Source of the DNA: Promethearchaeota archaeon
GTDB lineage: Archaea; Asgardarchaeota; Lokiarchaeia; Sigyniarchaeales; SOKP01
Direction of reading: 5' to 3'
NCBI GenBank assembly: GCA_008080765.1
Contig: SHMU01000001.1
Coordinates: 1,255-65,254 of the forward strand
DNA: 64,000 nt
Positions 15,246-50,067 of this stretch are shown here, in pieces. A program made the position numbers and the translations under genes. The notes below the pieces were generated by a model. That model was not told where the DNA came from, made no database searches, and worked only from the letters and a program-made list of their open reading frames with translations. Within the stretch, counting starts at the first letter, position 1, and the number at the start of each line of letters is the position of its first letter.

Positions 15246-15257
15246 GGATCTCTTCTT

Positions 15258-16235
15258 TTAAGCGTCTTTTTTCAAAGAAAAATGAACTTTATTAAACATT
15301 TCTTCAAGATTTCTATAAATATCAAATTGATTATCAAGAAGATTGGAAGCGAGATCATCTAACTCCTCATTATTAAATAAGTTTTTAAGAAGAATTGATT
15401 CGATTCTATCAATCATACTTGCTTTAATTTTGTAGATATAGCGCTGGGTTTTTCTTGTTTTGATCAATTCCGAGAGTTCAAGATATTCTTTATGATCCCA
15501 GATCTTCTCGAGTAAGATATCGATCCCTTCGCCGCTTGCGGAGTTAGTCATCACTACGGGTGGTCGCCAACCGCTCTGAGAAGATGTAGCATCATCAAGC
15601 ATCATTTCAATTTGCACCACAAGATCTTCACCCCCTAAATCTTTTTTATTGACATCATAGATGTCTGCCGTTTCAATGATGCCCGCTTTCTGCATTTGGA
15701 TGGCATCTCCCATGTTCGGTGCCAGCATTACCACTACAGTATATGCTAAATTATATATGTCAAATTCTGATTGTCCAACGCCTACAGTTTCAATTAGAAT
15801 AACATCCATTCCATATGCTTCATATAATAAGGATATATCAAAAACTGCTCGTGACACCCCTCCTTTATATCCTCGAGAAGCTAAGCTCCGCATGAACACG
15901 TTAGGATGGATTGTAATCTCCTTCATTCTCACGCGATCCCCTAAAAAAGCACCTCCACTAAAGGGGGAGGAGGGATCTATAGAAATTATCCCTACAGATT
16001 TCCCTTCTTCAATAATTTTTTCAGTAAGCTTTCCTGTGAGAGTACTTTTACCTACTCCCGGAGAACCAGTCACACCAATGATATATGATTCATTGGAAGT
16101 ATTATTTAAATGCGTAAATATTTCTTCTGCTGAATTAGGATTATTTTCGACAAGAGTAATCAACCGAGCTAATGCTATTTTATCTTTTTGTTTAAATCTC
16201 TGACATAAATCTTCTATATTATACTCTTTTTTCAC
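15258..16235 (-). CDS. meaB: MeaB/ArgK methylmalonyl-CoA mutase-associated G-protein chaperone
   Basis: P-loop GVTGSPGVGKSTL, GDRVRM, ETVGVGQSE and NKKD boxes. Confidence 0.9.
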   Translation of the reverse strand: MKKEYNIEDLCQRFKQKDKIALARLITLVENNPNSAEEIFTHLNNTSNESYIIGVTGSPGVGKSTLTGKLTEKIIEEGKSVGIISIDPSSPFSGGAFLGDRVRMKEITIHPNVFMRSLASRGYKGGVSRAVFDISLLYEAYGMDVILIETVGVGQSEFDIYNLAYTVVVMLAPNMGDAIQMQKAGIIETADIYDVNKKDLGGEDLVVQIEMMLDDATSSQSGWRPPVVMTNSASGEGIDILLEKIWDHKEYLELSELIKTRKTQRYIYKIKASMIDRIESILLKNLFNNEELDDLASNLLDNQFDIYRNLEEMFNKVHFSLKKDA

Positions 16236-16358
16236 TAAGAATCAACTGATTAAATGTGTTGAAAAATGTTATATTATCTTATCCTAAGGTAATGTACTCT
16301 TTTATTATTATTTTATGGAAAATTTAATAAAAATAAACAAGATTAAAGAAAAAAAGAC

Positions 16359-16532
16359 TTATTTCTCGATATTGTCTTTGATAAAATTCACTATTTGAGA
16401 AGTCATTGAACCGGGTCCGAATACGTTAGCTACTCCCATTTTTTTTAATTCATCAAAGTCTTTTGCTGGAATAACACCCCCCAATAAAACCATGAACTCC
16501 TCTTTCATATTCTTCTCTTCCAATTTAGCCAT
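16359..16532 (-). pseudogene. truncated paralog of the methylmalonyl-CoA mutase B12-binding small subunit (C-terminal 57 codons only)
   Basis: Hand translation: MAKLEEKNMKEEFMVLLGGVIPAKDFDELKKMGVANVFGPGSMTSQIVNFIKDNIEK*. It aligns without gaps to the C-terminus of ORF 49649..50050 (41/57 aa and about 121/174 nt identical by hand count). The upstream in-frame sequence is unrelated and closed by TAA. Confidence 0.75.
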
Positions 16533-16824
16533 AAATTCCGTATACCCAAATGATAGAAATTATAAAAAAAAGTCTTCACGCTAAAGACCATACTTCAGAA
16601 GTGAATGGATTCAGCTAGGGCCCTATTTTTCGGATATTCCATTCGAGGTCTCAATTGATATATCCCCGCTACGGGACGATAAACTCTTCTTTAAATTCGA
16701 GGTCTTTGATGAGCTGGGCAATTCACGAATATATGATGGTCTGGATCAGTATATAATAAAAGATCTGGATAATCATAACAGTATATATACAATTTCGGGT
16801 ATTTTCGAAAACCAGATCTATGGA

Positions 16825-19800
16825 TTGGATGAAAATAATTATATCGATATAAATCCTCGTATCTTTCCGTTCGATAATGATTTGACGCATATTATCATTA
16901 CCACAGACTATGAGTCCTTCATCTTGGATACCAAATATATCTCCTCTGGAAAAACCTATTTTTCAGATCACGAAAATAATATTAAAATTAATTCCATCTA
17001 TTATGATATTTTCAGCGGCGAATTCACTTCTATCCCTTTAACAGTCTCTCTGTATCAGGGAGATACCTTACTTTCCTCAAATTACTTCACGCTTACCGCT
17101 ACAGGAGTCACTTTCAATGATATTATTATGGTTTCAAACTTGTCCGCAGTTCCCGATACAACTTTCCCAAACAACAATATCTTTATGAGCTTTGACACAG
17201 GTGCTGATTCTTATACGAATGCTCACAATATTCCCTATATAGTAAATTCATTATATCCTACCGTGGAGATAACGAATGAATACGGTGAAGTGATTGATAC
17301 CGTAATTCTCAAACCTAACTCAAACGGTTCACGCATAGAATTGTACTCTTCCATCAATATCGCACATAATTATTTTGAGCTTCCTATGCCTTCCTCTTTA
17401 CTTGCCGGCGAGGAATTATGCGATATTTCTTATATCGAGATTGCCGGTATAGCTTACGATTTTATCTATTATGTCGATGATACTTCTATTATTATAAAGC
17501 TTGCTACGCTTGACGAATTAACGGGTCCTTTCGACGTAAATATTGAATATTCGTATTCAAATAGCTATTTAGACAATAACCAATTTGTTGGATCCTATGA
17601 TTTTCAGAATTTACCGCAGAACTATTACACTTTAACAGGTACTTTTTATGATATTTCGGGGGCAATTTCTGAATTTACAATTCCTACCTTATTATGCGAT
17701 TATCAACCACCTGTTATTTTCCGACAATTCGATGAGTTAATCTCTATTAACCCTAAATATGCCAGTATTTCATTTTATATTCACGATGCCTCTCCAATTG
17801 CGGGTTGGTGGTTTGCTGAACAGGTGGATGGGATATGGACGGAGCAAAATAATACCTACACCTTTACATTTAATGATACCTCCTTTACCGACGGCTTATA
17901 TTCATTTACTTTACGGGCAAATGATACTTTGGGCTATAGTTCTTCTAGCACCTTTTCTGTATATCTGGATTCCGAAACTCCTATTATGACTAATTTCGAA
18001 AACCATTTTGAATACTTTAGCGGGCTGTATCACTGCCAAGTATCCGTAGAGGATGATTCTGCGGTGCGTGTGGTCCTGGATCATGCGATTAATCTGGAAA
18101 CATTAGAACATTATAATATTACCTTTTCTGTTTTTAAACTCGAGGGAGAAAATACATGGGATATCACTTTCGATACGACACAGCTTCCCGATGGTCCCTA
18201 TAATCTTACTCTTGCTATCATTGATGATGCGGGAAATGAGCTGGTTTATGTTATTGCGGATCGTGTCTTTGATAACTCCGCCCCTCAATTACTTGATCTC
18301 TACGATGAGGTATATATCGAGGGAGAGCTCTTATATTCGAGCGATCTTGATGACATCGTATACTTCAATGATCAAAAATACCTCTTCTTAGAGGCGGTCG
18401 ATAACATCTACGGAGAAAATATTACCGTAGAAATGCATTACAGCAGTCCCTTAGAACTCTATAGCATGCAAATCGAGGGTTCATTGGATTATAATATTCT
18501 CTCTTATAAGATCATCGGATACGGTTCTATCTATACCGAAATTTCACAAATTATCGATATCGAACGCTTATATATTGATGGAACGGATGTTGCGTTCACC
18601 ATTGATCGAACGGATGAAGATTTTTATATTGAAATTTCAGAGGATTATCAGTATTTACTTACTTCCGAAAATTCTGAGAGCATAACAGGAGATCTTTATA
18701 TATATCGTGAGAGTATACCCTTGAACTACAACACCTCTAAAGAGCTTTGGGAGCTTACCACCCCTACTCAGAGCTACTTTAACATCTCAGAGCATATGTC
18801 CATTCAATTCGGTGATACTTTCTTATTTTGGTATTCACTCGAGGATGGAGTGGAAAATAGGCTTCTTACCTCACGGTATACGGGTGTCTATGATAATTAT
18901 ATGGGGCTAATAGACCCTGATGCCTCATTTATGCTATTCCCCTTTGCAAATATCGATAATGAGGGAATCCTCATTTTTGGTGCCGATAACGCGCTTTACC
19001 ATACGGTCTTTCTTAATCTCTCGCACATTGTTCCCTCTTCTTCGCAAACACTTGATGTCGCACGTGCCTATCTGTACGGCTCTAATACCGCTGAATTTAG
19101 TACCGTCATGCCTCTAGGACAGGCATATCAATATTATGACGATATTTGGGCGTGCGCTTGGAATATTAATGATTGGGACGAAGGACAGATTCCTTCCGAT
19201 ATCTATTATCTTAAAGTGTTGCTTGTGGACAACGCAGGCAATTATCTATCTCAGATCAATCTTACTCATATATTTAATTACGAGCATATTGAACTCATTT
19301 CGGATGTGGTGTTCGGAGATATTTTCGAGTTCGATGCCAATTCTCCGTTCAATGTATATGAACTTACGGGTGCTATTAATACCGCCAATAACACGGAATT
19401 AATGAGCGTGATCTGCTCCTATTATTCTGCTACTCAAAATCAATGGATCCCCATACAAACTACTTCCTCCGAGCTTACGGTCGCCGGAGAGTATAGCACC
19501 TTTAATATTACATGGGATATGAATTACGATTATTCATTTTTAAACACCTTATACACTCAATCGTATGCTTATCTTCCCATGCGAATTGTGAATCCGTTTG
19601 AGATTGATACGGTATGGGGTTCTTGGGGAGTCTTTACCGATGCTTCATATACCGAATCTCAACCCATCTTATTAATCAATAATTCTGGGGCTCTGGATAT
19701 TCAGATCTTTACCTTTGATCCCGCTTCAGGATGGCTCCTTAATACCACCTTAAGTACGGTCATCGATTCAATTAGCTATTCGGAATCCGACTCGTATAGG

Positions 19801-34800: not shown

Positions 34801-35946
34801 GCCAGCGAATTAGAGGCGACGGGGCGCAATATTTTTGATGGCTCTTATCAATATACCGCGGCTGTACAATTTGTAAGCCCCAGCGGTTCTTTGATCGCCA
34901 ATCCTGAAAGTCCCTATGGCTCTTCTATGTTTTATTTTGATATCGAAGAGACTTTGGGAGGAGGAAAGATTACTATTTCCAATATAACCATGCTCTATCT
35001 TATTTCTCAAATTGGAATGGGTATGGCAACGATTAAAGCAGAAATCCTGGGCTCTCCTTATTATAAATCAAGCCCTCTTTTTAACATCCCGCTTGAATTT
35101 GTATTAGATAATAATATTAAGATAGGGGAGAAAAGTCTTGCCGTGGATCTCATTGATCCTTTTATCGCGGCATGGGGATCTGTATTTGATTCTGAGGGAC
35201 AAGAGATGCCCTTTGAATCTAATTATCCTTGGATTAAAGGTTCTGTGTGGATTGAGCCCGATTTCTTAGGAGAAGGAGAGGATTATGAACGAAGCATTCA
35301 GGACTATTTAGAGATTAATTTAGATGCCACCTTATATTATAACGAGACTTCCAATAGTACCTTCCCCTTGAGAAGTGGTATCATGCTCCGTCCCGGAAAT
35401 CGCGATGGCGTCTTTACTTTCGAGGTACCTTTAGGACCGGAAGAGTCATATATGTTTGGCTATAGATGTGATCTGAACCTCAGCTTTAGCATTGACTTTA
35501 GCAAGGATGTGATTTATTATCAAGAACGTGATGTAGAGATGTATCTTCTAGATTTGCGCTTAGAATCTAACCCTAGTTCTGTCAATCCGAAAACGCATTG
35601 GTCATTATATTCTCACGGAATTGAACCAGGAATAATAACCGATCCCTTCCTTAACATGCCTTTTGAGGTGAAAATGAGCGAGGGCTTCTCAAGCGATACA
35701 GGATTTCTTACTTTAGGGGCTGATACGGGTACTTCTGAGGATACCTATGGACAGCAGTTAGATTATCAATATAATGAGGAAAATAGTTGTTATGGAATTC
35801 AGAACATCTCAGAACAATTTGATACCGATCTCTTAGGACTTATCGATATTACACCAATTAAAGTTATCGGTATGAAAGACGGCAGAGAGTATGAATTCAT
35901 ATACGGAAGCGATTGGATTTTATGTAATCCTCCTGAAAGTTCCTAG
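16825..35946 (+). CDS. giant ORF 1 (6373 aa as called): mosaic surface-protein-like ORF; start uncertain
   Basis: Uninterrupted frame in AT-rich DNA. The called start is a TTG with no SD. The frame stays open and protein-like back to the stop at 16582..16584. No signal peptide. Recurrent Ig-like D-x-AGN motifs (18220..18240, 19225..19245, 30859..30879), two LamG domains and many N-x-S/T sequons. Confidence 0.8.
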   Translation: MDENNYIDINPRIFPFDNDLTHIIITTDYESFILDTKYISSGKTYFSDHENNIKINSIYYDIFSGEFTSIPLTVSLYQGDTLLSSNYFTLTATGVTFNDIIMVSNLSAVPDTTFPNNNIFMSFDTGADSYTNAHNIPYIVNSLYPTVEITNEYGEVIDTVILKPNSNGSRIELYSSINIAHNYFELPMPSSLLAGEELCDISYIEIAGIAYDFIYYVDDTSIIIKLATLDELTGPFDVNIEYSYSNSYLDNNQFVGSYDFQNLPQNYYTLTGTFYDISGAISEFTIPTLLCDYQPPVIFRQFDELISINPKYASISFYIHDASPIAGWWFAEQVDGIWTEQNNTYTFTFNDTSFTDGLYSFTLRANDTLGYSSSSTFSVYLDSETPIMTNFENHFEYFSGLYHCQVSVEDDSAVRVVLDHAINLETLEHYNITFSVFKLEGENTWDITFDTTQLPDGPYNLTLAIIDDAGNELVYVIADRVFDNSAPQLLDLYDEVYIEGELLYSSDLDDIVYFNDQKYLFLEAVDNIYGENITVEMHYSSPLELYSMQIEGSLDYNILSYKIIGYGSIYTEISQIIDIERLYIDGTDVAFTIDRTDEDFYIEISEDYQYLLTSENSESITGDLYIYRESIPLNYNTSKELWELTTPTQSYFNISEHMSIQFGDTFLFWYSLEDGVENRLLTSRYTGVYDNYMGLIDPDASFMLFPFANIDNEGILIFGADNALYHTVFLNLSHIVPSSSQTLDVARAYLYGSNTAEFSTVMPLGQAYQYYDDIWACAWNINDWDEGQIPSDIYYLKVLLVDNAGNYLSQINLTHIFNYEHIELISDVVFGDIFEFDANSPFNVYELTGAINTANNTELMSVICSYYSATQNQWIPIQTTSSELTVAGEYSTFNITWDMNYDYSFLNTLYTQSYAYLPMRIVNPFEIDTVWGSWGVFTDASYTESQPILLINNSGALDIQIFTFDPASGWLLNTTLSTVIDSISYSESDSYRVFDINHDGISEIIRLTPSSLDLMYYNHSSGWTIQENVTNTAPTDILLTYDLFYDESLGTTSCIVAYEHDSEYYLARYQINATIDEQIIIDTTYVSSYECEKMPTSVAFVENFNYASGIEIIVSKLDTGTYHSEVLKFNYDLSSSEPLYQNILGRIILIEHHLIDGYHTLFLGTDRYRIGKRDTVFALKYDFAMNAYVRYEITEIDATQLELIDIMAMKTETLDSLIMATDSGLFETIIDYTTDTDTIYDPCSFNTEIFSKTQLNIMGPALNPIIDVEFSPISDIISISYDLDNGYGWQPLGSEYYYYSPYSIKLLLSALWNELERVKIVYNYRTGVAEETQVFDPSFTVHEGFSDSTDISASSVFIHDYPSELVWLNPTTGYSDENAEWITLETEWYDRGLNYRMQPVRGEFEWLTESQYPRVRPEVYQTATLPLDASDEANISEIVPAIGEIIAVYGLTYSADQTLESNTLQKYPVFQWDIIESGQVISLERCPKKSLFENITINYLPSVNLYPVGDEYYFDNFTHNGIEYTNPYYMSNLQDDLTDYGTYIHPEQDLAYELVRDAFGIHVNFTDEGDPIGIPYGAMSYATVDDTPQSAIGITDYLLYQYEIMDEATPLLGGTLNISMNAGFNDIYYAELSQMALDYYNITITLFTLDENGQRTFIHSIEQEIDHSTLGFSSKDFIIHINEHTFTTQQLSLIKEALTRNSGNNLLVEVTTELDNVRVNAPSFKGHFAQEILSASFEAETLSTNMQYNGYTPQNTYLEIPHSNVRLTRINTSTYEFSDDVLKYDFKFVINHLYGYDLEISPDDYIFDASTNKITLTHEWTDFYGIITANITYLAFPWDYNYISTLEPMTFSFTGDFIENATQFLEIEVEYAPDGIPAYQFRDFDTQGRLTLYDESRSANMLEIYLYNYRTEMWERKECVVYSDYTGEMGNRKPTYSYIFDRNFIRFEDYFNEYSSQYELQALFIVNQEAKSSYYSEFSMDIVNITPRLYSHVPQSQCVLSPELEFSVDVSEFYDRSSVALYLEQLSLDLTYLSELTFLNNEIAEQHALIRDITHLYVKDLTGQYQELNMSAGIHFASDELESLIIHDYDAKTYYMQFKLRTQYSVLLYMNVGTNLQIQSLLQLVSYDLTTSSSSFTTKRISASEYNIPFELKEISMPNYAESDSGSEITLLDADSDADIGLINGFMRTAETKQRLMLKHSLHYNFTEAQFDMDIVLDDVYSDVRLNLLSPIGQLFEPQEKYISTEETFSVYTDSEVSLVELYYINETGHHILVSEMASSEDTTYYSYLWSAIDQDTELEDGRELTIKIYLEDQLGHSNEYYYTFITKFEDPTGEISVGVGSADYSQTPVNPFTSLSFENTEKQLIAYWPFDEDAGELIYEALSGDSSTLYNGDESVWAEGLSASCLHLDGIDDYVKINHNPHSEFGSEPFSISFWINPDSTDEGTIFDSTGVHIFFNQPNLTVHLTDIHEDLVDISVNQLIKTNVWSHVIITFNGSDIKIYIDRHETDAEITGNINALGILQTGITDIIGRYFSGSIDELMLFDFALNTEEIDYLFYQNEEGGVFSEANWWKSTYAFESWESLPQEVNIEPDSGTLTQEGDYSTLGYPSIFDSTLIEYTGPAERWIPDLSTTHDYYSYVTYPDYESMTPLFDSLSGITLYAQFPTATISESDWGSWNVASNSQFTSSGYDYNFNSFFNEQNSYDTITPIDGSSLDPSKLFSLDEEFSGIDSQSLTPHLITIDDMFTNSELYYRPDYFSHQYYLNPYEFDGSEYNRYDDNIEMVNAFPTYDIYEQFNPSEWIISANNSYITNSLDQGVDHTNLSSILNKIYPQSIDTNRAGFPDDENNDINFINYDVVNSFLRIQRDAYETQNKPHSHVFLYSGLHILSAINQIVQSSDGNPPWNVDKGDGYRGINQLAGQIGGSPMSQDFDYYTIDIDSADGQYGEYGYSDYSVLDRLYISSRHATGWVHDIFAGIRYGKDSIGTITIQKDDHTAYTHSNYFIGGNTHLNYQGRSELITENLEDLVRDDGNVLISVENYLNANYEWFGIYLWTVAWLMHKLDQLIVKPRYIADEDVNAHFTFDPAITQDKKFILAFNYDAGLQYLESYNQEDYDLKTNSAYLMNGDDIFKELKLEGGFDGENFEKVAMPIYNPNLWIDFREAYTIDNVDLDYFFLVRNETTPDVEAAFSRNIGNEETDGFFDTFNALSDTYEQDYEITLEFEYEYKPNPELDRVDSDNTWGLNSYTNVSVDGQEPIQLQVSESAGQSFIFRKTFNYTWNGNGIDIDFLLSNTQLKIENLNYSIQFIGRKKDTTEDTRILGQEFFYDCNGHDNITDLISDELDVDYIKDNGRFSLRINLSLYAEYVPLYEYRPTLNISLDIYADGQWRNNIYNITYYNYGGKDLAKFNIRDLMDNNGYTTFEDYRVHFYTSGDGTSLTIHNVTLIDYGDFLEPHTPYDDIFYSEDTPLQWNLYLDDMQDTIIEEDRFLLGDAYIYNMQPIQNYGTSSQMLFGKYWNEYSDSTYIDGSYHNYWYSDPNIDNHGRGYDTLFNSYYMKSYYDKGALFTSNADVAHRRVVKINTNIELYGEDNVHNYHVPFSWRVYNIIGQLPDQYSADTVRIYNDEQEEYETLIEDNYDSSAFRTINIEDEVDHPITEYINEKGEMYIYILHWGRTIQTAWYKREWEGRIDISDYDSSITYDYWDNPENYYSYLQMDKSSDYFSDVFLDTPELYLYSSNPNVIYDSPTEFQVFSTDPFYEDTITWTNRPSMGNLLMSSSYSYSPEQEYLVELGDYDGEYVLINHTVPSYSHQLGAFYTRESAINQPYSRQYISKFYQNEKHAYLQTDESEELKMRTSVLDSPLTINPGSYFIIDCQARTDNIYLDLIFDDGQGTPSTQATLTVLDQNTNYQNQSIKVFYEGTEDLTFNVFQIRSTMDDKDYIKVYALRVSNPHEFESLETDYTSKLDQSFRIYLSEITDNDFIETLTLYYAFKLEIDVGEGVGDAGSHTIENFALMIKDFTTDQFIPFNTTPNRGNFSLNTLNIEDPNYSPYLSKDEEGYYLEFKAQGELKYYCKDFSLLLDVFRANYTWKRIDGPDARASFTKAFDIDGFLNAFDNETFAEFLRKYDLHITFDYIYTIADPDYEGFANISLNKYGVNAEISDISGSGHYDYITEFNSEFYNNFSINFTLQNGNLSISNLQIMATFKAIDGAYGLDDHRILEQNFTIDPDLSLDEIERTLGLLWMDLNFSLQVDENEYLQYRTPHNLTLLPKVCIDGIWYIIGTYHYDSDIESLSVRFNISEFMKDHNLLDGEIEDIKIEMIVSGNSTTCVLSEFVLYEQLPVEPANLNFTMIIPFRNHEHYIKELWYSYKAAFDQPINLSIWNYDTQQWEVLTKESYKENYTIITEAYYGITNEVRIKVSAESYRRYFMDQPFTLAVDLMKLIEYDTLEMSIPEITIPYENDFTFSGWVYLNNSISDMISTLYGEYTSIGSIHDVINYVGISSEGAIVFDKCNLADGDNVTSISGVIPIGEWTHIVVIQKANTVVFYVNDEYLGTGSFSNEYNGFTPDKMNIGSALQDNSQGRYRINGSVKDVRLYNYTIAREDIRWLYNFGKGQVTTLQYRLPQPRTFVPKEYLKVIDLVSGYTSAWIEFHSSQISQFTDLYALGIEDLPKQFQLCYKVVDYAGNTIINTTYNGMFTDIMFEKNTTLQWQDDDTLIDLGSINEQERTLNFTGEFGGEDVDITINGFSFGTAQFDEQTQSYSLSFGTENSIDTLIGYSDSLLSPKIFSNINPYNYENVAWEIRGQDFFGAIKHVLIEGDLEIVNPLTFNDTKELELQHLYDRGFILRNFVRMQQVYYINITTAQKHIISVGDFYPDRDGTIYFPEHSQIHELYSHIDEIEGGVVYFNYQSSPFAESLHKTNADGFYIRIAIPDIPELYEKHTTVQKLAIKFNDATGECFARTYYDLDLRPYFLEGVREQYQQTIFGMGRMLSIPLYLDMNELAFSAPDAYWDLSILDSISITVSDHYQWPGSFMEVHGDSSVLNLPYQKIAIQDIKLYNLLADNVIEDEQGYITSEIQVEAPNYYGYYAQDTIKIKREEIQLTDLTLLINNEEVSDSWEIQYSDYMELYFTYNGQDDRIPLEEIYHIPLSLYDADSAQKYEYAVADLHWISKMDLTSPQGYLTNYYYSKFKAPDDLGTFNLSFSSIGLPIYNIVIPNAPSYEVTVIPEALHKNTPIYLEKENLRVEYDNELILKGCVLSDDEIYEVDRVLQYKYEEALDGEASYTLDLEVPYDSSNFMDKQHFALYYLNKKLEKVPLYVNLDDVYFVNASILNTASIPEIRYVNHQYTLLIYWNTASKHFIDYDAKLLLTYKRNGNPIIPLSYSSLDSLGNDLFSSLIEVPFVRYDLLNKQWLSEDDFEEKYTLTTKLEHTVLFQESGIIEGIAFNISNQLITSDIVRFQHAYVNHSNGFIEPLSEDNYTVSIDPEGRLHFTYHNYSVGDTITVGYHTYIPIQLQHSLTSSNSYLYSMRMYSNNMSYYIEFTPDDYVLSQDGYVLYFTNLSKILSNDSFTIYDPIFINYHAPLSRKVDLGNNLLLMTQDSLGHYLPIDNIPLDSLGFFEYVNTFSMEQLSLPMFGETYVNMRLDYLPTTIYNKLAQDYDPVNYIFKGRKRYAHKEGEWTNDFRIITIPKQVRLTLVEDPTQPTVIFQDHTEDKHYQFNRNPMETLEEGEEYTALQMDLSAKKTYMFKYQLVDTFDKPIINSIVWLQIGFMPKSATQFLNPRAIIEDGTSIYYESLGTELYTSRGPGEGVHKMYGAPTLFDLAEPQGEFTQYGPYVWTYCKTNAFGIAEFDISFDQHFVEDFNTIFGQEHAIESVDDIVLYHRAFSSYFKWDEMVMDPTTLICSESTSNEVYNGENRLENYNFTDLAIQDSTAAEGIIRIRKRDIVAAPANRLSYKFNLNQTSFDPLSFTIFASEADLIPTPQGTTINSLTALHSASELEATGRNIFDGSYQYTAAVQFVSPSGSLIANPESPYGSSMFYFDIEETLGGGKITISNITMLYLISQIGMGMATIKAEILGSPYYKSSPLFNIPLEFVLDNNIKIGEKSLAVDLIDPFIAAWGSVFDSEGQEMPFESNYPWIKGSVWIEPDFLGEGEDYERSIQDYLEINLDATLYYNETSNSTFPLRSGIMLRPGNRDGVFTFEVPLGPEESYMFGYRCDLNLSFSIDFSKDVIYYQERDVEMYLLDLRLESNPSSVNPKTHWSLYSHGIEPGIITDPFLNMPFEVKMSEGFSSDTGFLTLGADTGTSEDTYGQQLDYQYNEENSCYGIQNISEQFDTDLLGLIDITPIKVIGMKDGREYEFIYGSDWILCNPPESS
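23917..24498 (+). other. LamG / concanavalin-A-like lectin domain 1
   Basis: LIAYWPFDEDAG ... LHLDGIDDYVKI ... PFSISFWINP ... VWSHVIITFNGSDIKIYIDR ... GRYFSGSIDELMLFDFALNTEEIDYLF. Classic Laminin_G_3 pattern. Confidence 0.7.
26383..27175 (+). repeat. protein-level duplicated module, copy 1 (~260 aa)
   Basis: AAFSRNIGNEETDGFFDTFNALSDTYEQDYEITLEFEYEY ... LTIHNVTLIDY aligns by eye with copy 2 (ASFTKAFDIDGFLNAFDNETFAEFLRKYDLHITFDYIYTI ... CVLSEFVLYE). Confidence 0.6.
27292..28133 (+). other. possible DNRLRE/CBM96-like domain with large insertions
   Basis: Opens with GDAYIYNMQPIQNYGTSSQMLFG and closes with ELYLYSS...QVFSTDPFYEDTITWTNRP. This is the D-x-y-v...NYG...l.v / W.e..iTWnNrP pattern of that family. 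The spacing is much longer than usual. Confidence 0.3.
29113..29845 (+). repeat. protein-level duplicated module, copy 2 (~245 aa)
   Basis: See copy 1. Shared blocks include SNTQLKIENLNYSIQF / QNGNLSISNLQIMATF, RILGQEFFYD / RILEQNFTID and DGQWRNNIYNITYYNY / DGIWYIIGTYHYDSD. Confidence 0.6.
30181..30651 (+). other. LamG / concanavalin-A-like lectin domain 2
   Basis: ITIPYENDFTFSGWVYLNN ... GEWTHIVVIQKANTVVFYVNDEYLG ... INGSVKDVRLYNYTIAREDIRWLYNF. Confidence 0.6.
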
Positions 35947-35997: not shown

Positions 35998-38900
35998 ATG
36001 ACGGAATTCACAGTCTATTACCTCCTTGAGTTCGATTTTTCAGGACATCACTACGGTATTGTAGAGTTTGGAAATACATCTATGCTCAATGAGACTTCAA
36101 TTCAATTTGAACTGCCTTTTGGATTCCTTCCTAATATTAGTGACTCCCGAGCGCCCTTGTATACTCAATTTAGCGAACAATTTTCGCCAGATGGAGATAC
36201 GTATCGACTTCATTATGGTCTATACGGAAGTAATGATCCTGATAGTATTATAATCTATAATCTAGACCAGTTAGAAGAACAATTTAAATCAGAAATCGAT
36301 GTTCTCTTCTCGGACGAGACTAATGAAGAGTATTATGAGATTGATGTTGTTTTTACCACTCCTCCAAATGAACCGTTTACCCTCAGCTACGGATTAAAGT
36401 CCGAATATTCCTTAGGTGCGGGCTTTCAAAAGATTGGAGAGCCTTACTCTGAAAGTACTCGGCTTATCTATACTGAAGAAGAGGCAGGACAGTCTAAGAT
36501 TTTTACAGATACCACTAATATTTTATCACCTTATTCCTTCTCTGAATCGGCATTATATATTTCATTAGATAAGCAAGATAATAAAGAGACCACTCTAACA
36601 ATTTTTGATGTGCCTTTGCTTTATTCTCCCTCTATTAATTTAACCTTTATTATAGATGAGTTAGGCAAGACAATGATCGACCAATATACCTCATTAGAGA
36701 ACATATTGACTATTGATTTTACATATATGGATTCCAATGAATTATACGAGTTTTCCTCACCCTCATTAGAATTGCAGTTAACACCTTCTCAGCTCAGCTC
36801 ATACGAACAAGGGAATTCTTATATTATCACATATGAACAAGACCTTCAAGCGCTTTATGAAATCTTGGGGATGGACAATATTGATATCTCAATTACAATC
36901 TCACAAGAAGGCGATGTAAATAATTTACCTTATCTCCTTATGACACAATACGGCTATCTAACCGATGAGTATATTATTGAGACTCATGATAGTATGCCTC
37001 TTGATGAGAATGGAGAGCCTGATTATGCGGCAATTACTACCACTCCACACTTTTATCAGATTACCTCTCAAGACCTTACAGAAGCACCATTCAATCTACT
37101 TAGCGACTCGCAGATCACTGTAGCACTTACCAATCTTTCTGAGACGGAATTAGTATCATTGAACAGCGATAACGGAAAAATTGATTTTATCTCACATGGA
37201 ACTAAGAAAACGTTTACCCTTTCCGAACAACAAGGGAATGCCGTACCGAATTTAGCATTATTTATCAACTGTTATGATATAGATATGCCGCAATATCAGG
37301 ACGGTTATTTAGATTTATATTATGGAAGTGGTACGGAAGTTGAAGGTGAAAAGCGCTCTACAAGCACCATAAGCATGACCGCAATTGGTACATGGCTTAA
37401 CTATCGTGCCAAGGTAGAGGATAATGTTATTTTGGGCTGGGACTCAACCTATGATTTTACGGACAAATTTTTAACAACGGATCGGATTACCGTATCGGGT
37501 AAAGTCTTTTATCACGCATTAGCAAATCTTTCTGAGAGCTCCGACGAATATCTTAATAAAATTCAAATGAAAGAGATTTTTGATAGTTATACCCGTGAAA
37601 TAGAATTCGGAATTCCCCTCCCCGAGCAATATGATATTGCAGATATTAGGGCAGTTGGACATCCGTATGAATATCATCTTAGCATCCAAGGATTTCCCGT
37701 AGAGTCTACGGATGAATATATGCAATATCTTGAAGCAGATGATCATGACAATTTCCCTGAGGATGAGTTTAACCAACCTACAAATCGTCTGCCTGACATC
37801 GATTTAGAGACGGGCAAGCTAAATTATGAGGTAGCAATTGACGAGAATGATTCTGCCTATCTTCTATTCTTTGTTCCGCTTACTACTATCTATGATTTAG
37901 GACTTTTAGATGGAAACGGTGATATCATGATCGATTTTCACGCTCATCAGACCTTTAGAGACGGGCAAGATTATTATATAAAAGAAAATTACGAAATTGA
38001 TGGTAATAATTATATCGAATGGGATTATACCTTAGTTTCAGGACATCCTTTTAAATTTCATCCTGATTTCAATGAAAATCATTACTTTACTGTAGAATAT
38101 TCAGCGTTAGAATGGAGTATTATGAAACAAATGTATATACACTATAAAACCGATTCATTCGTTTATCAACCCGAGACATTCCAAAATGTATCACTCTTTT
38201 ATCCGGGTGATGCCTCCATCGAAACTTTTGGGGTACGTAATACTATTCCCGAAGATCAACTTTTAGACGGTCATATCTTATTCCCAAGCGTTTATGTACT
38301 CACAGAGACTGATGAAAATAGTGATGAATATGAAGTACGACAGCTAAAAAATACTGCTATAGACTCAAAGCTTGTATATAAAACGCCCGATCCTTCCGAG
38401 CCGTGGAATTATACAATTGATTTTGAACAGATTGCTATCGCTTTAGCAGCGCAATATCCTGGAGAGCATTTGGTCAATCCCAGCTTTTTATCTGTGGAAG
38501 CGCATTATTATTCCGATCAATGGAGATATGAGCTTTCCAGCACACCGTTCAATTACGAATATCTTGAAAAAGATAGTAATTATCATCTAAAGCTTACTAT
38601 TAAAAATCCGGACGGTATTATTATCGATGAGAGATATTCCAATGAGACTGAAGAAATAGGACTAAATTATCATACTCAGGGGTTTGATACCTATGTGCAA
38701 GCTATTAGCAGTAATTATATTTACTTTAAAGAGGGTGTAATTGATAAAAACTCTACCATCGAGATTTCCTATCATTATAAGCTGCAACCCGGCTTACAAG
38801 AAAGAAAGCATTTTCTTATCTCAACGACTCCTTATACACAAGCTTTCAATACGGAATACTTACCAGGAGCTTCTAATAGTTCCAGTGCTATTTATAGAGA

Positions 38901-41900
38901 ACGCTACCGCAAACTAAGCGGAGGGTCGATAATAGCACCCTTCGATTATATGCTTTCCATCAATGAAACCTATAGTCTTTATCTTTCCTATCGTCTTAAT
39001 CAGCGAGACTATTTCCAGCATGAATATACAACCTCAGAAGGCGATTTAACGGGACTTGAGGGGTATCGTAAATTTGGGCTTCTCGATAGAAATCTACGGG
39101 ATACAGGTTTAGTGCGATTTGCGAAGGGGGCGGAAAAAGAATGTGTGAAAGTATATTTCTATAATTATCGTACTGATTTAGATTCGACATTCACCTCTAA
39201 AAAATATCCCTATATCGGGCTTTCTGAAGAGCAACAGATGCAACCGGTATACGGTACCACTCCTAAAATAGCTTTCTTAGATCCTTCTTTATATGAAGTA
39301 GATTCTCAGATGGTAGCAGTAAGTATTAAACAAGAAGCATTAGAATTAATCGAGCGAATGAATCCAAAAGACGATAAATTCTATATATCCTTTGTGCCTC
39401 AACCGCTTGATCTTGAATTATTAGCTTACAAGTTTCAATATCTCACTTCAGGAGATATTTTAGACTCATTAGACGTTCTTCATTGGGATGTACCAGAAAA
39501 GGACGATTTGGATGTATATCCCAATTTAGATGCTTATTATTATAAAGATAAAGAACTTTCCTCGATCGAACGAGTGGTATGTCATGCTTCTGAGCTTTCC
39601 ATATATCTGGAAGACGGACACTCTTTAGAGTTTGATGTAGAAGCCGAATTGCAAGCATACGATCCTGAGTTATTGAGTAAAATCCACGAAGGAAAATATG
39701 CTTCGATATTTATAAAAACTAATATTGAGAATTTAGAGAGCTTGGAGTCTTTACAAATACAACTTATTGATAAAGACGGGAATATATTAAACGATTATAC
39801 TCAGATAATATCTACGGAAGAGATTGATCTTAATGATTTTGAGTTACATATTAACTTACCTTCCTACGCAGATAACAAGTTAAAAATTATTAAATTCATT
39901 CCTATATTCCGCACTGACGATATTTATTCGTTAGAAAATAAAGTAGGTATATCTCAGTACGATCTAATTAAATGGGATGAAGAAGATGTGATAACTAATG
40001 AAACTTATCCATTCATGTTCTTTACATTAGAGACCAATCTTCAAATTAATGCTTCTCACGCGGGACGTGAATTTGCATATCTATTTAACAACAGATTAGA
40101 ACGTATTTATTTCCCAGAAGGAGTCTCCATCGAGTATACTAAAATATTCGATGATGATGGTAATCTTCTTCAATATGCATTAAAAATTCCGAAGGAGCAT
40201 ATTGATCCTCTAACAGGAGAAAATGCAACCTTCAGCAATGAAGATCTGCTTTTCTTGAAATATTATTCACCGGTGGAGCGTGCTATATCCTTAGGTATTG
40301 GGAAAATATATTTTGAACGAGCATTTGAAAATAATGAAAAATCGGAGTTCATGATGGTAAACGCCGAAAATCAGAATTACTTCTCTCAATTCGCCGAAAA
40401 TAACTTTGGCAGTGAAAATTACTGGTACGAGCAAGAGCTTCAAATCACTCCGTTCGATACGGAGCATACAGGAACCTTTAAGACCGCAAAATTGGATATT
40501 AATCTAAGTGCCTTAGAGGATGATGCCATTGACGGAAAAGTGCCCTTTAGCCATATTCTATTCACGGTGCCTCATCCATTATATGAACTGACTATTAACG
40601 AGATTCTCATCTTAAATCCCTCTCAAACTCACACTACCGAACACGGATCTACTTCGAGTAGATTATGGCAATATTCTGAAATTCAAGCATTTGCCGCAGG
40701 TAGTGACCCCGCTTACGATGAATATAAATTTAATTTTACTCAATCAGTTCCATTATTCTATAATGAATCGGATCCCGCCCAAGAATGGCTCAATTACATT
40801 AGAATTTTTGATGAGGATCAGAATTATTACTCGGTAGGGTTATTTGGTGATCAATATCAACTTCATTACGACCAAGAAAATAAATCGTTCTCGTGGAACC
40901 CCACTTTCAATCAATATCCTGTCTATTATGGCATGCAATTTGAAGAAGAATTGATGATCGATCCCAATCATACCCTTTATATCGAATATTGCTCCAATGA
41001 GTCGTGGAAAGAACCAATAGTTATTGAGGATGAAAATGTGGATCTTACTTCCATCTGGACCATCTACGATTTTATCCATACCTTACGCCCGCAATATTAC
41101 AATTGGTTTATTGACGAGCTCGGCTATGAAGATAATGAGTATTCATTAATGGATGATATTGATTATAATGTCACGCAATACCTCACCGAACAATTTACGG
41201 TGTATGATAACATTACAGAATATACTCATCAGTTCGATATAGGCAATTATTCCTTTACGGAAGATTATTTGAACTTAAGCCTCTCCCATGTAGTAGCGAT
41301 TACACCCGATTTTGAACAGATTCTTTTAAGCGATAATGAGAATTATACGATTACCTTTAATGCGGAAGGGAAGAATATCACCATCGAATCACTTCATCCT
41401 TATTCATATTTGAACGAATTTGATACAATTTCCGTGGTTCTTAACTTTAGCAGAGGTCCTATTAATTCGTTTACAGAACTGTACTTGACGGAAGACTTCT
41501 TTACGTCTCAACTCAACTATAGTGATGATCTCACTTCTACCTTTTATGACACCATCAATATCTATTATGAGACATTCTCTCAAGGATTTGACGGGGAAAT
41601 ATTATTCATGGAGAGCTCCTCTATTATCACCAGCGAGGATACTCTCTTTACTCCCATTAGCTACAGCTCGTTTAATGCTATTACTGATCAGCGATGGGTG
41701 TTAATGAATTATTATTCAGGAAATTTTGATAATTTCAAACTTTATTATGATGATTCTTCCATTTTCTATCAAGCGGATATCGATCAAGACGGTAAAATTG
41801 ACTTTAAGCATACACTCGATATTGATCGGGACGGAAAAATGGATATCATTCGCTATGGAGAAGAATCAAATAATGGGGAAATTATCTGGTATACGATTAT

Positions 41901-44900
41901 CCAAGCCTATGAAAGAATAGACTCAGAAGAGACTCATGAAATGGAGGACAAAAAGGAGACCAAATGGTTCGATATCAATGACAAAAATTTTGCCAATTAT
42001 GAATTTAATATTGCTGAATTATTCGGTGTGTGTCTTACAGGAGGCTTATTATTACCATATACGCTTGCTTCGATGATGATGCCTATAATGGATTATTATG
42101 CCATGAAAACTCTTCAAGAAGAGGTAATTAGGGACGAAACTATAGAATCTACCTATTATAGCATTAAAACCGATTATGATCGCGACGGATTACCAGATTA
42201 TCAAATGGATTATGAATCATATAAGAACGTGGTACAATATGAAGTCACGGAACATCATAAGACTCTCATTGCCGCCAAATATCAAGATGTTTTTATGTTC
42301 CTAACAGTATGGGTCGCAAAAAATATCGCTTCATTGGCTAATGAGCCCGTATATGATTTTGTGTTTAACGATTTTCTTACCGAATATCATCTTGACCATT
42401 GGGACTTTCGAGGGCTTCCACCCACAACACTTGCTCAACTTCCATTTATTTTATCTACCTATCGTAAGTATTATTGGGATATGACCAGCGAATATACCGA
42501 TAGTTTTACTTACGAACAGATAAAGATTATCGAATATGATGATCAAGGAGAGATTTCAGAATCAAGAATTTATAAAGATGATTTTAGAAACGATGAGATT
42601 GGGAATGTAGCTCAATTCTTATCCAATTTAATCGAGGAACACCGTGTCACGAATGTAGAGACCGGTGAACAACTTAGCATATCCTTTAATCCTAATCTTC
42701 CTTTCTCACGACCTGAAGATATTGATTGGGAATGCGAAGTATGGGGAGTCGATGGAGTTCCCATTAAATTTGACTCTCTTACCGTATTAGGCGGTGATGG
42801 ATTAGAGGTTATCGATGAGACTAATGTATATCAACAGGAAATTATCATTAGAATTCCTAATCGCTATTCTCTGTATAACGATTTTAGAAAGACAGCAATC
42901 TGGCAGGTCGCGAACATGGGATTTGCCGATTTTAAAGTGGAAGGAATTTTAGTCACTCCGCAAGACGGGAAGGTCTATATTACCAGCGATATGATCTGTC
43001 TTGCATGGGGAGTCGGGAAAGTGCCCGGCAAATATTTCTATGTAGACTCTACAGGAAATGGTTTTTATGATACTGTCTATATTGTAGCTGCTACACCTAC
43101 AGACACTTCAGGAACTCCCACGTATAAGGTCTTAGCCATCGGCTATAATTATGACGGAATCCACGATTTCAAGCCCTACGAGAAGATTTATCCGAAATCC
43201 CGCATTGAGTCCAATTTCTGGATGATGGCAATTCAGACCAATCGATTTGATGTCCATTGGACTTATCAATACGGCAACCTTATCCGAGAACCATTGTTAT
43301 GGCCCACCTTAGAAAGCCTCATTTGGAATTATTTCAAACCCGCCGATCACATTTTTGAGATTTGGAAGTCTACCGCCTTAGATTGGAACGGCAAATCTCT
43401 TCTTTATCATTACATAGAGACCACGAAATATTATGAAGCATGGTTCCAATATGGTACGCAATATTATGAAGACTTCTTTGAACAGACTTTTATGGGTACG
43501 GTGTCTTCGGCGCTAAGTGTCTTCACACAAATATCTGTCCAAATATCTTTTGGAATACTTAATGTTTTCGGCGCTGCAGCAATCGAGCGTATTGCCAACG
43601 CCGCCGGATCTGCAATATTTATTCTTACTTATACCTTAATGACCAAATTTTTCATGGATATAGACCGTCATGAAGTAATGTCAAAACAGAGAGCCTATAC
43701 CTATTATCCGTCAAAATATATCTTCAAGTTCGATCCTCAAAGTATGAACGAAAAATGCCTATATGATAAGCTGCTTGGAGATAGTATGGCGACTGCTCTG
43801 CTTGGGCATTACGGCGCATATTACACCACCGCAGTGGGCGAGTCAGAAGGATTTCAAGTAACCGCTGAGGTGATGGTTACTCCTCCTAATTATGCCAGAA
43901 TGATGACCGGCTGGCAAGGATTCTTCGAATTTTTAGGAATGAATTTAATCGCACCCGGTTCCCATCCCGCAATATATTACGGTTTAACGTTTGATCAGAT
44001 GAATTTAGATTGGTATGCTCTTACCAGCGAATTGCCTTTATATACGAGCCCCTTCCTTCTTTTCTTAAACAGTATGCTTTTCGGACCATATTATATGTAT
44101 CGTCAAAATACTCTGGGCGCGGTAGAGACTATTACCATGCTAAGAACCTTAAATCACCTAAACACGATTCAAGCCACCTCCATCGGCGGCGATCCCCGTT
44201 ATAGATTAGTAAATAGATATGAAGCACCTTACAATAGAATTTTACCTGAAAAAGGGTTATACTCTCCCGTAGTATTAAGTCCCGAATGGAATCAATATGC
44301 AGGCAATATAAAGGGAATGATGTATATTTGGGCTTTATGTCATGATTTCCCCTCAACAGTTGGATTAGGCTCCGAAAACACACTCACCGAGGTGGAAAAA
44401 CTCAAATATAAAGCGAAATTCATTATTAATCCTAATGGGTTCGAATATCCAATAGAATCCATTCAGATCAGTCTCATGCAACAAAATAAGAGAGGAGGTA
44501 TTTTTGCCAGCTCTGAGAATCTTATTAGCAATATTCAAGTACAAGAAGAAGATTTTGAAGTGATTGACGGTACCATCTATTTCACTAAGACATTAGATGA
44601 AATTGTCGCCGAACAATATAAAGGATACGAAGAATTACTTGCAGGAATCGATCCCGAGCAATATTTACTACATTATGGTATTAATATTATCTTTTCATTG
44701 ACTATTCCAGATACCAATAACGAGACCCATAAACTAGCACTTGCGCAAGCAACTCAGTTTGCGGTAATGGATTATTTCAATCAATACGTGCAAGCTCAGA
44801 CAATTGCTCAAATAAAATCCGAGATTGCCTATACGGAAACCTTAACATTCTGGTCTACTATCATGACCACCGCTCTTAGTTATTTCGGAGGCTGGGGTGC

Positions 44901-47900
44901 CACAGGAACCGGAAGCGCTATTGCAGAAGTAGGGGCCGAGGTAGGAAAGGAAGGCGTAAAGATCATTGCCAAGGAAGTCTTGAAACAAGTTCTTAAGGTT
45001 GTCTTAAAGACTATCTATGAAGCAATGAAGGAGGTACTTCAAGAAGTTATTCTTGATGCTTTCATAGAAGCATTAGCTGAAGGCTATTTCGTGGAGATCT
45101 TAGGCATGAGCGAGGATGCGGGCTTCTGGATCTCTTCGCTTGCAACATCCCTTCGAGAAGCGGGCTTAGGACCGTTCAAACTAATGCGTAAAGGACTTAC
45201 TTCGGTAATGTCATCTATCAGCACTAATTTAGATCTGCATTTAAATCTAGACAGTATTTTCTTTAAGAACTCTAAAAATCATATTAAGGACTTACAGAAT
45301 AGCCTTAAGAATGCAGTGGAAGCAGATAACTTCATTGACCAAGCTAAGCTTAAGGAAGAGATTCGACAAGCTGAGACGGAGCTCGCCCTTAAGCAGAATA
45401 AACTGAATTTGATTAAGAATATATTCAAAGGAATTATCATGCTCTCCTTAAGTTTCAAATTCTTCGGATTTGGATTTATAGGAGCTAAAAGTCTATTAGA
45501 TATTGGGACTTCAATCTCCTCTTATTACGATAATAAGGCTGAAATTAATACGATTTCTCATGTTATGAGGTCTGAAAACCTCCAGTTTGCCTATGAAAGC
45601 TCCATAACTAATTTAAAAAGAGGGTTGTCTCAAGACATCTATGATCAATATGCGAATACGAAACCTCATGATCTCAGGCAACTTGAAAACAAGATAGAAC
45701 TCTCATATGCACAACAACAAAGCAACGATTTCAAGACTATTGACAGCTGTTTTGACCCAAACCGCGTTGAGAAAATAAGTCCACCTAAAACTCCGGACAA
45801 TATTGATCTCCGAACCGCGAAAGAAGCGAACGCGATGACCCCCATAGAAAAATACGTCGATAGTTTCTTTTTTAAGGACCTTCTCAACACATTCCCCGAA
45901 TTAGAAGCATTACGCCCACGTTTTGAATCTATCGTAGAATGGGTTTCAAAGATTTATAACTTAGACTTTTTAGAGAAAGCAAGACAGAATCAAGAAGCTT
46001 CAGAGAAAAAACAAGCAACCGAAAGTAATGAAAATACAATAATCGTAGCCAATTTCATCTCTAAGGAAACAACGCCTTCAGAATATAGATCGGCTGCTTA
46101 TACTTTCAGGTTATCTGGCGCCCCTCATGATTTAGCAATAAGAGAGATTCAGTTAGATCCCACTCTTACCATTGAGGAAATTAAGACAAAAGTGAGAGAA
46201 GAATACAATCTTGAGTTTACAGAAATTCACCTTCTTTTTAATGGCAAATACTTACCAAATCATCTTAGATTTTCCGAACTTGGAATTAATCCTCAAATGG
46301 ATGTAATCACGGTAATGGCCACGCAAGAAGCAGCTGGAAGAAATGTTGCGGCGAAAATATTTGCAAATAAAATAAAAGATTTGATTTCTAATAATGAAAT
46401 CAATAAAGAGGTTGCAAATAGATTAGTAGCAATATTAAATAACGATAAAAACAATTGGAATTTTGAAAAAGAAACTCTTGATAAATTCCCCAAGCTAAAA
46501 GATTTAGCAGAGGAGATAGCTCGAAAAGTAGCGGATGGAGAAAGCCCACAATTTAGTCCAGAACCAATATGTATAGGGCCACTTCTCAGCGTTGACGAAT
46601 CAACATATCGTCGTTGGCTAGATTCTAGTACGTTTTTGTCTTTACAAACATTTGAAACCATAGAATATATTATTGACACCTTTTATAGTGGCACTACATT
46701 CGGGAATCAAATGAATGAACTATTACAAGATTATGAAATGAGGAATTTGTTAATGCATGGTTCACGCCTTTTTGCCTCTAGTTCTAGTATTTCCAGCATT
46801 TTAATTATGGAGTTGGAACGACTTATCACTTATAAAAACGAGAAAACGGGTACCGATTATGAAATGATTATTATTTCTCATTTAAAAAGCGCCTCAGAAC
46901 ATAAAGAATTTTTAAGCGAATATGTTATTGAAAACTTATATGGAATAGAACAATTTAAAAGAAGTAATGATGGTCGTCTACAGCGATATGTTATGGCGTA
47001 TCTTTTGGGTGTCTCTCAAGCGTCTATAACTAGATGGATGTACGGGGAATTTGATATTTCTCAAAGTTCTTTTATAACTTTTGATAATAGAATTCAAGAG
47101 TTATTTGGAAACTTAATCGAGAACGAAGGCTCGTTATATAATTTTTATTTAGAATTTAAAAATCTTATCGGTAATACACCTCAAGATCGATGTTCAAAAA
47201 CCGTTCGTGATCAACTATTACATTATTTAAAAGAGGGTGAGAAAAAGTACGGACCTTTTAGTAATTTTAGGGCTGATAAAGCGACTAGAGCCGAGATTTC
47301 AGAGAAAAATATAGAACTTTTCGGATATGCAAAGTTATTTAGTGTTGATGCCCTCATAAATAGTGCTTTAAAAGATTTATTGCAGAATAAAGACTTTTTA
47401 GACAATGAAGTCTCTGATGCTTTGGAAAAAGGGTTTCCAGGAGAGGGCAGAAAACAATTGGAGGGCTTAAAATGTTTTATAGAAGAAGATATTGAGAGAG
47501 CGGTAAAGACATTCAGATATTTATTATTCGGTCTTGCAGATACTTCTCTACAAAAGATTATGACTGGGGCAGAAAAATGCCACCTTAAAGTTCATTGTAC
47601 CTTAGAAAAGTTTCTTAGAATGGTTTATGAGAGCATGCAATACTCTAGTGATTTTCAAGTTATTGATAGTGGTCCATCTATGATACTTATGCCTACTACA
47701 TGTATCCAAACAAGATTAGATAAAGACGGAAATGTAATATTGGATAAAAATGGAGTTCCCATGATATGCGGTGAGAAAGGTTTTTATTTAGCTAAAGATC
47801 TTATAAGTGGAAGAGCTGTTTGCTATAAGCATATTATGCGCTGGAACGAGCAAATAACTGCTGCCTTTTTCACTTATTATACTGGAATAGAGTTAAGTAA

Positions 47901-49247: not shown

Positions 49248-49648
49248 GATTATTTTTTATTGGTCATTTTTTCTCAAATTAAATATACTAATTTAAATGC
49301 ATTAGTGTCGGGAGAGTTAAGATTTTTTATGACACCATATTATTCCAATCATCTCAATTTTTATTTAGTTTTCATTCATCAATAAATAATTTATGCAAAT
49401 TTAAGAACAGATCTTAACCATACATAGATATAATTAGATAATACCTTTATTTTGTTCTTTTACTATACAGCAGTATTTCAATAATTCTACAATTTATCTT
49501 CATTTAAATTCTCTCAACGCATATCTATCATAACCTTAAGAAAGAATAAGAGATCCAAATAATAAAAAGGTTTTAGATTATATGCAATAAAAATTAGAAA
49601 AAATAAAAAAAATACAATCAAGACCTAAAGTCGTTCTTTCTAAGAGAA

Positions 49649-50050: not shown

Positions 50051-50067
50051 ATCTCTCACCTGAAATC

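Follow-up and report, generated by a model that had tools for sequence, protein, structure and literature searches.

Introduction

Gene transfer in Asgard archaea is much discussed and has rarely been resolved to the base. Homology-facilitated illegitimate recombination is known from bacterial transformation and conjugation, and rhs and cdiA loci leave behind orphan modules that lack a start. Some genomic islands integrate in the 3′ end of a gene and supply a replacement 3′ end. We analyzed 64,000 nucleotides of contig SHMU01000001.1 (assembly GCA_008080765.1, positions 1,255 to 65,254; hereafter the window) from the Promethearchaeota metagenome-assembled genome (MAG) BAJALOKI1v1, in which a giant gene without a recognizable start lies within the mcmL-mcmS-meaB operon. 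Giant genes of Asgard archaea have been described in the aloposons of Ca. Heimdallarchaeum, which carry tandem genes for proteins of 3,000–6,000 aa (among them Otus and Ephialtes), are integrated at a tRNA gene on the downstream side of the giant genes, and have four upstream genes including one for a ParA/MinD ATPase (Wu et al., 2022, PMC8813620).

When compared by layout and gene content, the window shares with aloposons an Asgard host, a block that is absent at the site in relatives, and an intact target gene downstream of the giant genes. Its two giant open reading frames (ORFs; 6,373 and 4,204 aa) also stand in tandem, but they share one frame, with a single stop codon between them, and are continuous in the homolog P0005. 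The window differs in that the target is the protein-coding mcmS and not a tRNA gene, that an mcmS fragment is found upstream instead of the four genes including the ParA/MinD ATPase, and that complete members of the window's family occur in ordinary chromosomal contexts. Islands that integrate in the 3′ end of a gene likewise leave an intact target and a displaced, diverged 3′ duplicate; here, however, neither an integrase nor an identical core repeat was found, and the cargo gene is cut at the junction. We consider it likely that three things hold jointly at this locus: the junction at the left end of the giant frame is a real scar, the giant gene is truncated at its 5′ end, and the block was inserted together with an mcmS copy from another lineage.

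Results

Start and export signals of the giant frame

The first part of the giant gene (TXT67760.1, 16585..35946, forward strand) was studied with phmmer/HMMER, tblastn, MAFFT and Pfam, and is best described as the 5′-truncated body of a putative giant membrane protein with LamG and Ig-like domains; Pfam recognized Laminin_G_3 twice and Big_13. A preliminary description made from the DNA alone had reported that the frame stays open back to an in-frame stop and that no canonical start codon follows this stop. Both points were confirmed. The frame is open from 16585, directly after a TAA (16582–16584), and contains no in-frame ATG, GTG or TTG until the TTG at 16825, which is codon 81 and the position from which GenBank calls TXT67760.1. 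The same description held that this TTG has no Shine-Dalgarno sequence and that the first in-frame ATG is more than 100 codons further in; accordingly, the 20 nt 5′ of the TTG gave no match of at least 4 nt to GGAGGTGA, and an in-frame ATG first occurs at 17128, 101 codons past the TTG. None of 13 candidate starts checked up to 18000 had a suitably placed Shine-Dalgarno match, which is informative because GGAGG or GGTGA precedes the ATG in many other genes of the window.

The reported lack of a hydrophobic signal peptide near this end also stood, with a maximum 19-residue Kyte-Doolittle mean of 1.12 in the first 300 residues. Over its whole length the 6,373-residue product (P0001) contained no segment at the cut-off of 1.6.

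The 80 codons 5′ of the TTG have the character of coding sequence, in line with the earlier proposal that coding sequence runs into the junction. We estimate the chance of a stop-free stretch of 80 codons at about 0.002 at the local base composition (approximately 7% stops per codon), and when these 80 residues were searched alone they matched internal positions of homologs with an E-value of 3e-6 (scaled to a library of 2.4e11 residues).

A Lokiarchaeal family of giant proteins

A word-index protein search with the N-terminal 700 residues of the giant frame returned no match. An exhaustive phmmer search of 1.84 billion representative proteins, with the translation of 16585–20184 as query, returned 211 relatives, 36 of them at E ≤ 1e-30. 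The best relatives (P0002–P0011; E 5e-197 to 1e-124) are collinear with the query and 34–38% identical to it. Their alignments start at residues 5–8 of the open frame, 75 codons before the TTG, and the same point corresponds to residues 324–1578 in the homologs. Tblastn of 13 homologs against the window placed the beginning of homology at 16585–16600, and the N-terminal 324–1,573 residues of these 13 proteins had no match anywhere in the 64 kb. P0005 spans 16600–38529 in four collinear high-scoring segment pairs (HSPs) with gaps between them. In the MAFFT alignment all homologs (12/12) share the conserved upstream half of an Ig-like domain (pattern roughly LD..GP...L..G.TYD......D....YKY.TP...W), of which the window copy retains only the part from 'RSEW' on. 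Since the upstream half is conserved in the homologs and absent here, the cut falls inside this Ig-like domain.

Five homologs (P0002, P0007, P0011, P0020, and P0069) have complete N-termini, in which a Met start and a cytoplasmic stretch are followed by a membrane region and then a LamG domain. The membrane region has 5–10 hydrophobic segments over 240–350 residues, ending between residues 351 and 728. P0002 has GGAGG 8 nt before its ATG, and P0011 has a canonical ATG with an AT-rich upstream region. Neither the window copy nor any other part of the window contains the N-terminal cytoplasmic segment, the polytopic membrane domain or the canonical start. A comparison with orthologs for an N-terminal signal module had been suggested; such a module for export or anchoring is indeed present in them, not as a signal peptide but as this polytopic membrane domain. 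A profile built from five N-terminal regions, used to look for the lost 5′ part in this MAG in a search that was insensitive, found five proteins, none of them from BAJALOKI1.

The homologs derive from MAGs of Lokiarchaeota and from the Loki's Castle metagenome. Giant proteins of Lokiarchaeota annotated as 'LamG domain-containing' (MEJ2276188.1, MBN1214789.1, and LCGC14 fragments from Loki's Castle) are collinear with the window copy, show 30–41% identity in aligned segments of both giant ORFs, and share its LamG and Ig-like domains as well as the partner gene ORF174; unlike them, the window copy is without the N-terminal 1,170–1,570 residues (polytopic membrane domain and first LamG domain). 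Together these comparisons show the giant frame to be what is left, after a 5′ cut, of one gene of about 12,000 codons whose family is specific to Lokiarchaeota. By the same alignments the window copy is short of at least 1,170–1,570 N-terminal residues, the polytopic membrane domain and first LamG domain included, and it has no start codon, Shine-Dalgarno sequence or export signal because these residues were lost. The ATG at 16605 combined with a frameshift was considered as an ancestral start and rejected, because the homologs reach over 1,000 residues beyond that point on the N-terminal side.

The two giant ORFs are one gene

The second giant ORF (TXT67761.1, 4,204 aa, 35998..48612, forward strand) was analyzed with Pfam, a hydrophobicity scan, alignment and its homolog P0153, to which it is 43% identical. 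It lies in the same frame as the 6,373-aa ORF, with one TAG (35944..35946, forward strand) between them, and residues 4534–7107 of P0005 align in one HSP across this TAG (window 30712–38529). For these reasons we treat the two ORFs as one gene. Recoding of the TAG was ruled out, since three further genes of the window end in TAG and a related locus (L073) has TAA as its in-frame stop. That TAA (21352–21354) is the single in-frame stop of the L073 giant gene and is at another place than the TAG of the window. Three other genomes (L076, L077, and L078) have it annotated as a pair of giant ORFs that abut or overlap (5471 + 5323, 3078 + 2284, and 3326 + 8863 aa). The repeated division of this gene of about 12,000 codons could stem from decay, from variants within populations or from a regular two-ORF layout.

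The second part has one hydrophobic segment at the cut-off (aa 3145–3163), a ubiquitin-like domain (aa 3384–3443, window 46147–46326; Pfam E 4.7e-7) and, at the C-terminus, a conserved domain of some 330 aa (window 47611–48609) with the pattern YD..V...GDI...IN.E.DG.QH. The C-terminal domain had no sequence match in Pfam or PDB, and an AlphaFold model of the C-terminal 333 residues was unusable (predicted local distance difference test score, pLDDT, 36). To the eye the pattern resembles Vsr/DUF559-type endonuclease motifs, a putative PD-(D/E)xK-like motif.

The junction at the left end of the giant frame

Between the giant gene and the neighboring mcmS fragment lie 52 nt of filler (16533..16584), containing the TATA-like ATTATAAAAAAAA and the in-frame TAA, for which blastn against the loci found no homology to mcmS, the giant gene or related loci. 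The preliminary description had noted that the elements on both sides of the junction are truncated, and this proved correct, as the giant gene and mcmS are both cut at 16533–16584. It had offered a rearrangement or an assembly breakpoint as the cause, of which the rearrangement is retained and the assembly breakpoint is not. An assembler might have fused two genomes or two loci of the metagenome at this point, in keeping with a contig that is metagenome-assembled and with the truncation on both sides. However, a 35.6-kb contig from a second assembler (from the Logan assembly of SRR10018917) agrees at 100% identity with window 7341–26235, through the junction. There is also no shared repeat at 16533–16597 to mislead a de Bruijn assembler, the mcmS copies could not have done so because their longest common exact word is 8 nt, and on either side of the block the gene order carries on as in a related locus (L004), which a random misjoin would not reproduce. 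We therefore regard a chimeric contig as extremely improbable.

The A/T-rich stretch that had been pointed out at 16559..16571 is indeed there, with TTATAAA at 16560 and AGAAA just before it. This box could give rise to a sense transcript from near 16590, where the closest ATG (16605) opens another frame that stops after 17 codons. Read in the other direction, the box precedes the reverse-strand ATG (16532) of the mcmS fragment by 34 nt. Judged by spacing, it suits the start of the fragment no less well than the giant frame, in which no start codon is found at a suitable distance. The box may serve a transcript of the mcmS fragment and meaB instead of, or as well as, one of the giant frame.

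Two other genes of the window, MaoC and ACAD, have a TATA-like heptamer 30 and 31 nt, respectively, before the ATG (at 12151–12180 and 52528–52558) and no Shine-Dalgarno sequence. This layout, which the ATG of the mcmS fragment shares (box 16560–16566 at −34), suggests that the organism has leaderless mRNAs beside genes led by a Shine-Dalgarno sequence.

We also weighed whether the truncated frame is a working gene, transcribed from the B recognition element (BRE)/TATA-like AGAAATTATAAAA within the filler. Translation would begin at a non-canonical or internal codon, such as ATT 16609 or TTG 16825, and yield a giant protein that has no anchor. Stretches of 19.4 kb and 12.6 kb have stayed open, with one stop, in a genome of 35% GC; a purine-rich stretch followed by TTATAAAA is found 25–30 nt before the frame opens; and the MaoC and ACAD genes provide leaderless-type layouts in the same window. 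Nevertheless there is no ATG, GTG or TTG in frame at a leaderless distance, the first 400 codons contain no Shine-Dalgarno sequence, the frame begins in the middle of a domain without the membrane module of every complete homolog, and the same box fits the reverse-strand ATG. A working gene is thus distinctly unlikely in our judgment.

A 33.1-kb block within the mcm operon

The genes flanking the block belong to the mcm operon and are encoded on the reverse strand. On the right, mcmL (50068..51768; Pfam MM_CoA_mutase, E 8e-168) encodes the mutase large subunit and is the first gene of the operon, followed by the intact mcmS for the B12-binding small subunit (49649..50092, with a probable ATG at 50050; Pfam B12-binding, E 4e-19). 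On the left is meaB (15258..16235; Pfam MeaB, E 1.4e-80), encoding the mutase-associated GTPase and last in the ancestral mcmL-mcmS-meaB operon, which is now separated from mcmL-mcmS by 33 kb.

Using MeaB we retrieved 71 related Promethearchaeota loci. In most of them mcmL-mcmS-meaB is contiguous, with meaB directly 3′ of mcmS. The gene order of L004 (SDR-ETFa-ETFb-ACAD-mcmL-mcmS-meaB-CoAT-B-CoAT-A-CobO-MaoC-thiolase) matches both flanks of the window, which can for this reason be read as the ancestral order plus a block of 33.1 kb (16533–49648). The block is bordered by the intact mcmS on one side and by a displaced copy of the last 57 mcmS codons on the other, so that the target gene is uninterrupted in relatives while its 3′ end is duplicated at the borders here. 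The conserved gene order shows that the giant gene and ORF174 form a block inserted in an otherwise conserved mcmL-mcmS-meaB operon. Neither base composition nor G+C content at third codon positions (GC3) sets the block apart from its flanks. An AT-rich spacer of about 400 nt (49248..49648) holds the right-hand boundary; it contains no ORF and no remnant of meaB or the mcm genes.

The site downstream of mcmS is recurrently remodeled. In 13 related Promethearchaeota loci (L005, L019, L021, L023, L024, L033, L039, L042, L049, L050, L056, L058, and L060) the mcmS-meaB spacer holds 1.4–7 kb of unrelated genes, and in several further loci meaB occurs without mcmS within the available upstream sequence (up to 10 kb). 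The MAG CSMAG_2741 has two separate mcmS-meaB loci (L040 and L044), one with a complete mcmL and one with mcmL cut by the contig end, which reflects either a genuine operon duplication or a bin that mixes strains.

The same window has a further insertion, likewise in a conserved operon, at 54875–58737. Here two paralogous genes, whose products (589 and 575 aa) are secreted proteins anchored at the C-terminus, lie between the genes for ETF-beta (53799–54608) and ETF-alpha (59257–60252). The ETF genes are adjacent in L002 and L004.

The two mcmS 3′ ends

The displaced fragment (16359..16532, reverse strand) comprises codons 91–147 and the stop of mcmS, identified by Pfam B12-binding and tblastn, in an intact ORF with a conserved Met as its first residue. 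Its 57 residues (MAKLEEKNMKEEFMVLLGGVIPAKDF...IEK, read from 16532 to 16359) match the C-terminal third of the B12-binding domain, at positions 73–116 of the Pfam profile (PF02310) with 17.2 bits, the cut-off being 32.1. The cobalamin-binding motif DxHxxG is not found in 16359–16532. The intact mcmS covers profile positions 2–116 with 69 bits and has this motif as DGHWRG. By tblastn the fragment matches residues 89–147 of the intact mcmS (E 6e-29), and it is short of 90 codons of the listed ORF, or about 76 from the probable ATG. The preliminary description of a mutase small-subunit remnant some 50 nt from the frame, with about 90 codons lost, was therefore accurate. It had been called a paralog; it is not a free-standing one but a duplicate of the 3′ end of the operon's own mcmS, the intact copy of which lies 33 kb away.

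The two 3′ ends share 70% identity in DNA and 72% in protein, with identities of 76, 93, and 40% at the three codon positions and no common exact word longer than 8 nt. Divergence at synonymous sites is saturated (pS 0.94) and replacement sites are conserved (pN 0.157), which indicates that the copies diverged as functional genes under purifying selection in different lineages. This excludes duplication of mcmS in place followed by decay, and shows that one of the two 3′ copies came, by this measure of divergence, from another lineage. The tail of the intact mcmS is 74–75% identical to L004, its head is 89% identical to L002–L004, and the fragment is 67% identical to L003; on these figures the divergence between the copies is comparable to that between the window and its nearest sequenced relatives.

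ORF174 and the 3′ end of the block

ORF174 (TXT67762.1, 48723..49247, forward strand) is a small gene that accompanies the giant gene at its 3′ end. In L075, the ORF located directly downstream of the giant-gene homolog is 42% identical to it (E 1e-38), and because of this position we assign ORF174 to the same cassette. Metagenome scans with the C-terminal domain of the giant protein and with ORF174 found no loci.

Beside its own giant-gene 3′ end and ORF174 homolog, L075 carries extra modules. A second, stand-alone C-terminal domain of 330 residues, 57% identical to that of the window, is encoded at 3760–4827 (forward strand), and an inverted ORF174-like fragment at 4816–5201 (reverse strand) has 73% DNA identity to window 48862–49247. 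These orphan 3′ modules are reminiscent of those of rhs and cdiA loci.

Discussion

Our comparisons place a 5′-truncated giant gene and a displaced mcmS 3′ end on the two sides of one short joint. To account for this, DNA from a related Lokiarchaeon would have recombined into the mcm operon, with one end of the incoming DNA anchored by mcm homology and the other joined illegitimately, so that the interior of the incoming giant gene met codon 91 of the resident mcmS and both were cut. The pattern, by analogy, is most likely one of homology-facilitated illegitimate recombination. As in the scars that this process leaves in bacteria, the foreign DNA borders on a homologous anchor, the opposite end joins without homology and truncates what it meets, and neither a recombinase gene nor att repeats are needed. 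At our locus the joint truncates both partners within 16533–16584, and the saturated synonymous sites of mcmS point to a foreign origin of the homologous anchor. It differs from the bacterial cases in its archaeal host and in an insert of 33 kb. Import in a single step, taken as a mechanism by itself, is a proposal that we hold tentatively, with slightly more doubt than confidence. The truncated gene is probably a recent remnant that is non-functional or crippled, since anchor and start are both missing and one TAG interrupts the frame, although 32 kb have stayed open.

Several observations weigh against this account. A one-step import needs a donor in which the cassette lies beside an mcmS 3′ end, an arrangement seen in none of the 71 mcm loci (0/71), and in the one giant-gene 3′ context that was recovered (L075) the cassette is not beside mcmS either. 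Identity and bootstrap analysis of the 57 codons does not separate the native from the foreign mcmS 3′ end. With a single stop in a 32-kb frame, the remnant may still be expressed and under selection, and the TAG is no proof of decay, as homologous loci are also split into two giant ORFs. Finally, the Logan assembly may rest on the same reads as the MAG.

An alternative origin is a mobile element carrying the giant gene, which would have integrated site-specifically in the 3′ end of mcmS with its own copy of that end and later lost its left part, through an internal deletion that removed any integrase and accessory genes together with the first 1,500 or so codons of the giant gene. Its topology would be that of an aloposon, with an intact target downstream of the giant genes and a duplicated 3′ fragment of the target at the far end (PMC8813620). 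The element-borne 3′ end would restore the target gene, the cassette is absent at the equivalent site in relatives, and unrelated insertions occupy the mcmS-meaB spacer in the 13 related loci. The duplicated mcmS segment also contains two identical 8-nt words, long enough for the overlap region of a tyrosine recombinase. However, Pfam searches of the whole giant gene and ORF174, and PHROGs searches of the C-terminal 905 aa of the giant protein and ORF174, found no integrase, transposase, ParA-type or phage family, although an integrase could have been lost with the left part. The 64-kb window contains no tRNA gene and no Rfam family, no att-like, terminal or flanking direct repeats were found around the block (and no identical att core above 8 nt), and IMG/VR scans gave only generic LamG matches to the giant-gene family. 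Complete family members in L074 and L076 lie amid ordinary chromosomal genes without the upstream genes of aloposons, and two events are required in place of one. We consider an origin of this kind unlikely. A circular junction with a split gene, as in SSV-type integration, was ruled out because 49248–49648 has no ORF that could supply the N-terminus; a circular form would also put the same mcmS-like fragment upstream.

A broader possibility is that giant-gene cassettes of Lokiarchaeia are exchanged between lineages as mobile or recombining modules that leave 5′-truncated orphan copies without a start. The window would then be an aloposon-like element in decay, with a protein-coding gene (the 3′ end of mcmS) as its target in place of a tRNA gene. 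The stand-alone C-terminal domain and inverted ORF174-like fragment in L075 support such exchange; taken as a whole, the proposal seems distinctly improbable to us.

Under the favored account of import by illegitimate recombination, the junction itself is an ordinary recombination scar, and the interest lies in the giant-protein family and in an import that is cleanly resolved. TXT67760.1 and TXT67761.1 are to be read as two pieces of one 5′-truncated gene, in which the missing signal reflects loss and not an unusual route of export. The import of 33 kb into a core metabolic operon of an Asgard archaeon is a clean and datable example of its kind. It also draws attention to an uncharacterized family of membrane proteins, specific to Lokiarchaeota and about 12,000 residues long, whose members are often split or truncated and in which an N-terminal polytopic anchor is followed by LamG and Ig-like domains and a C-terminal ubiquitin-like domain.

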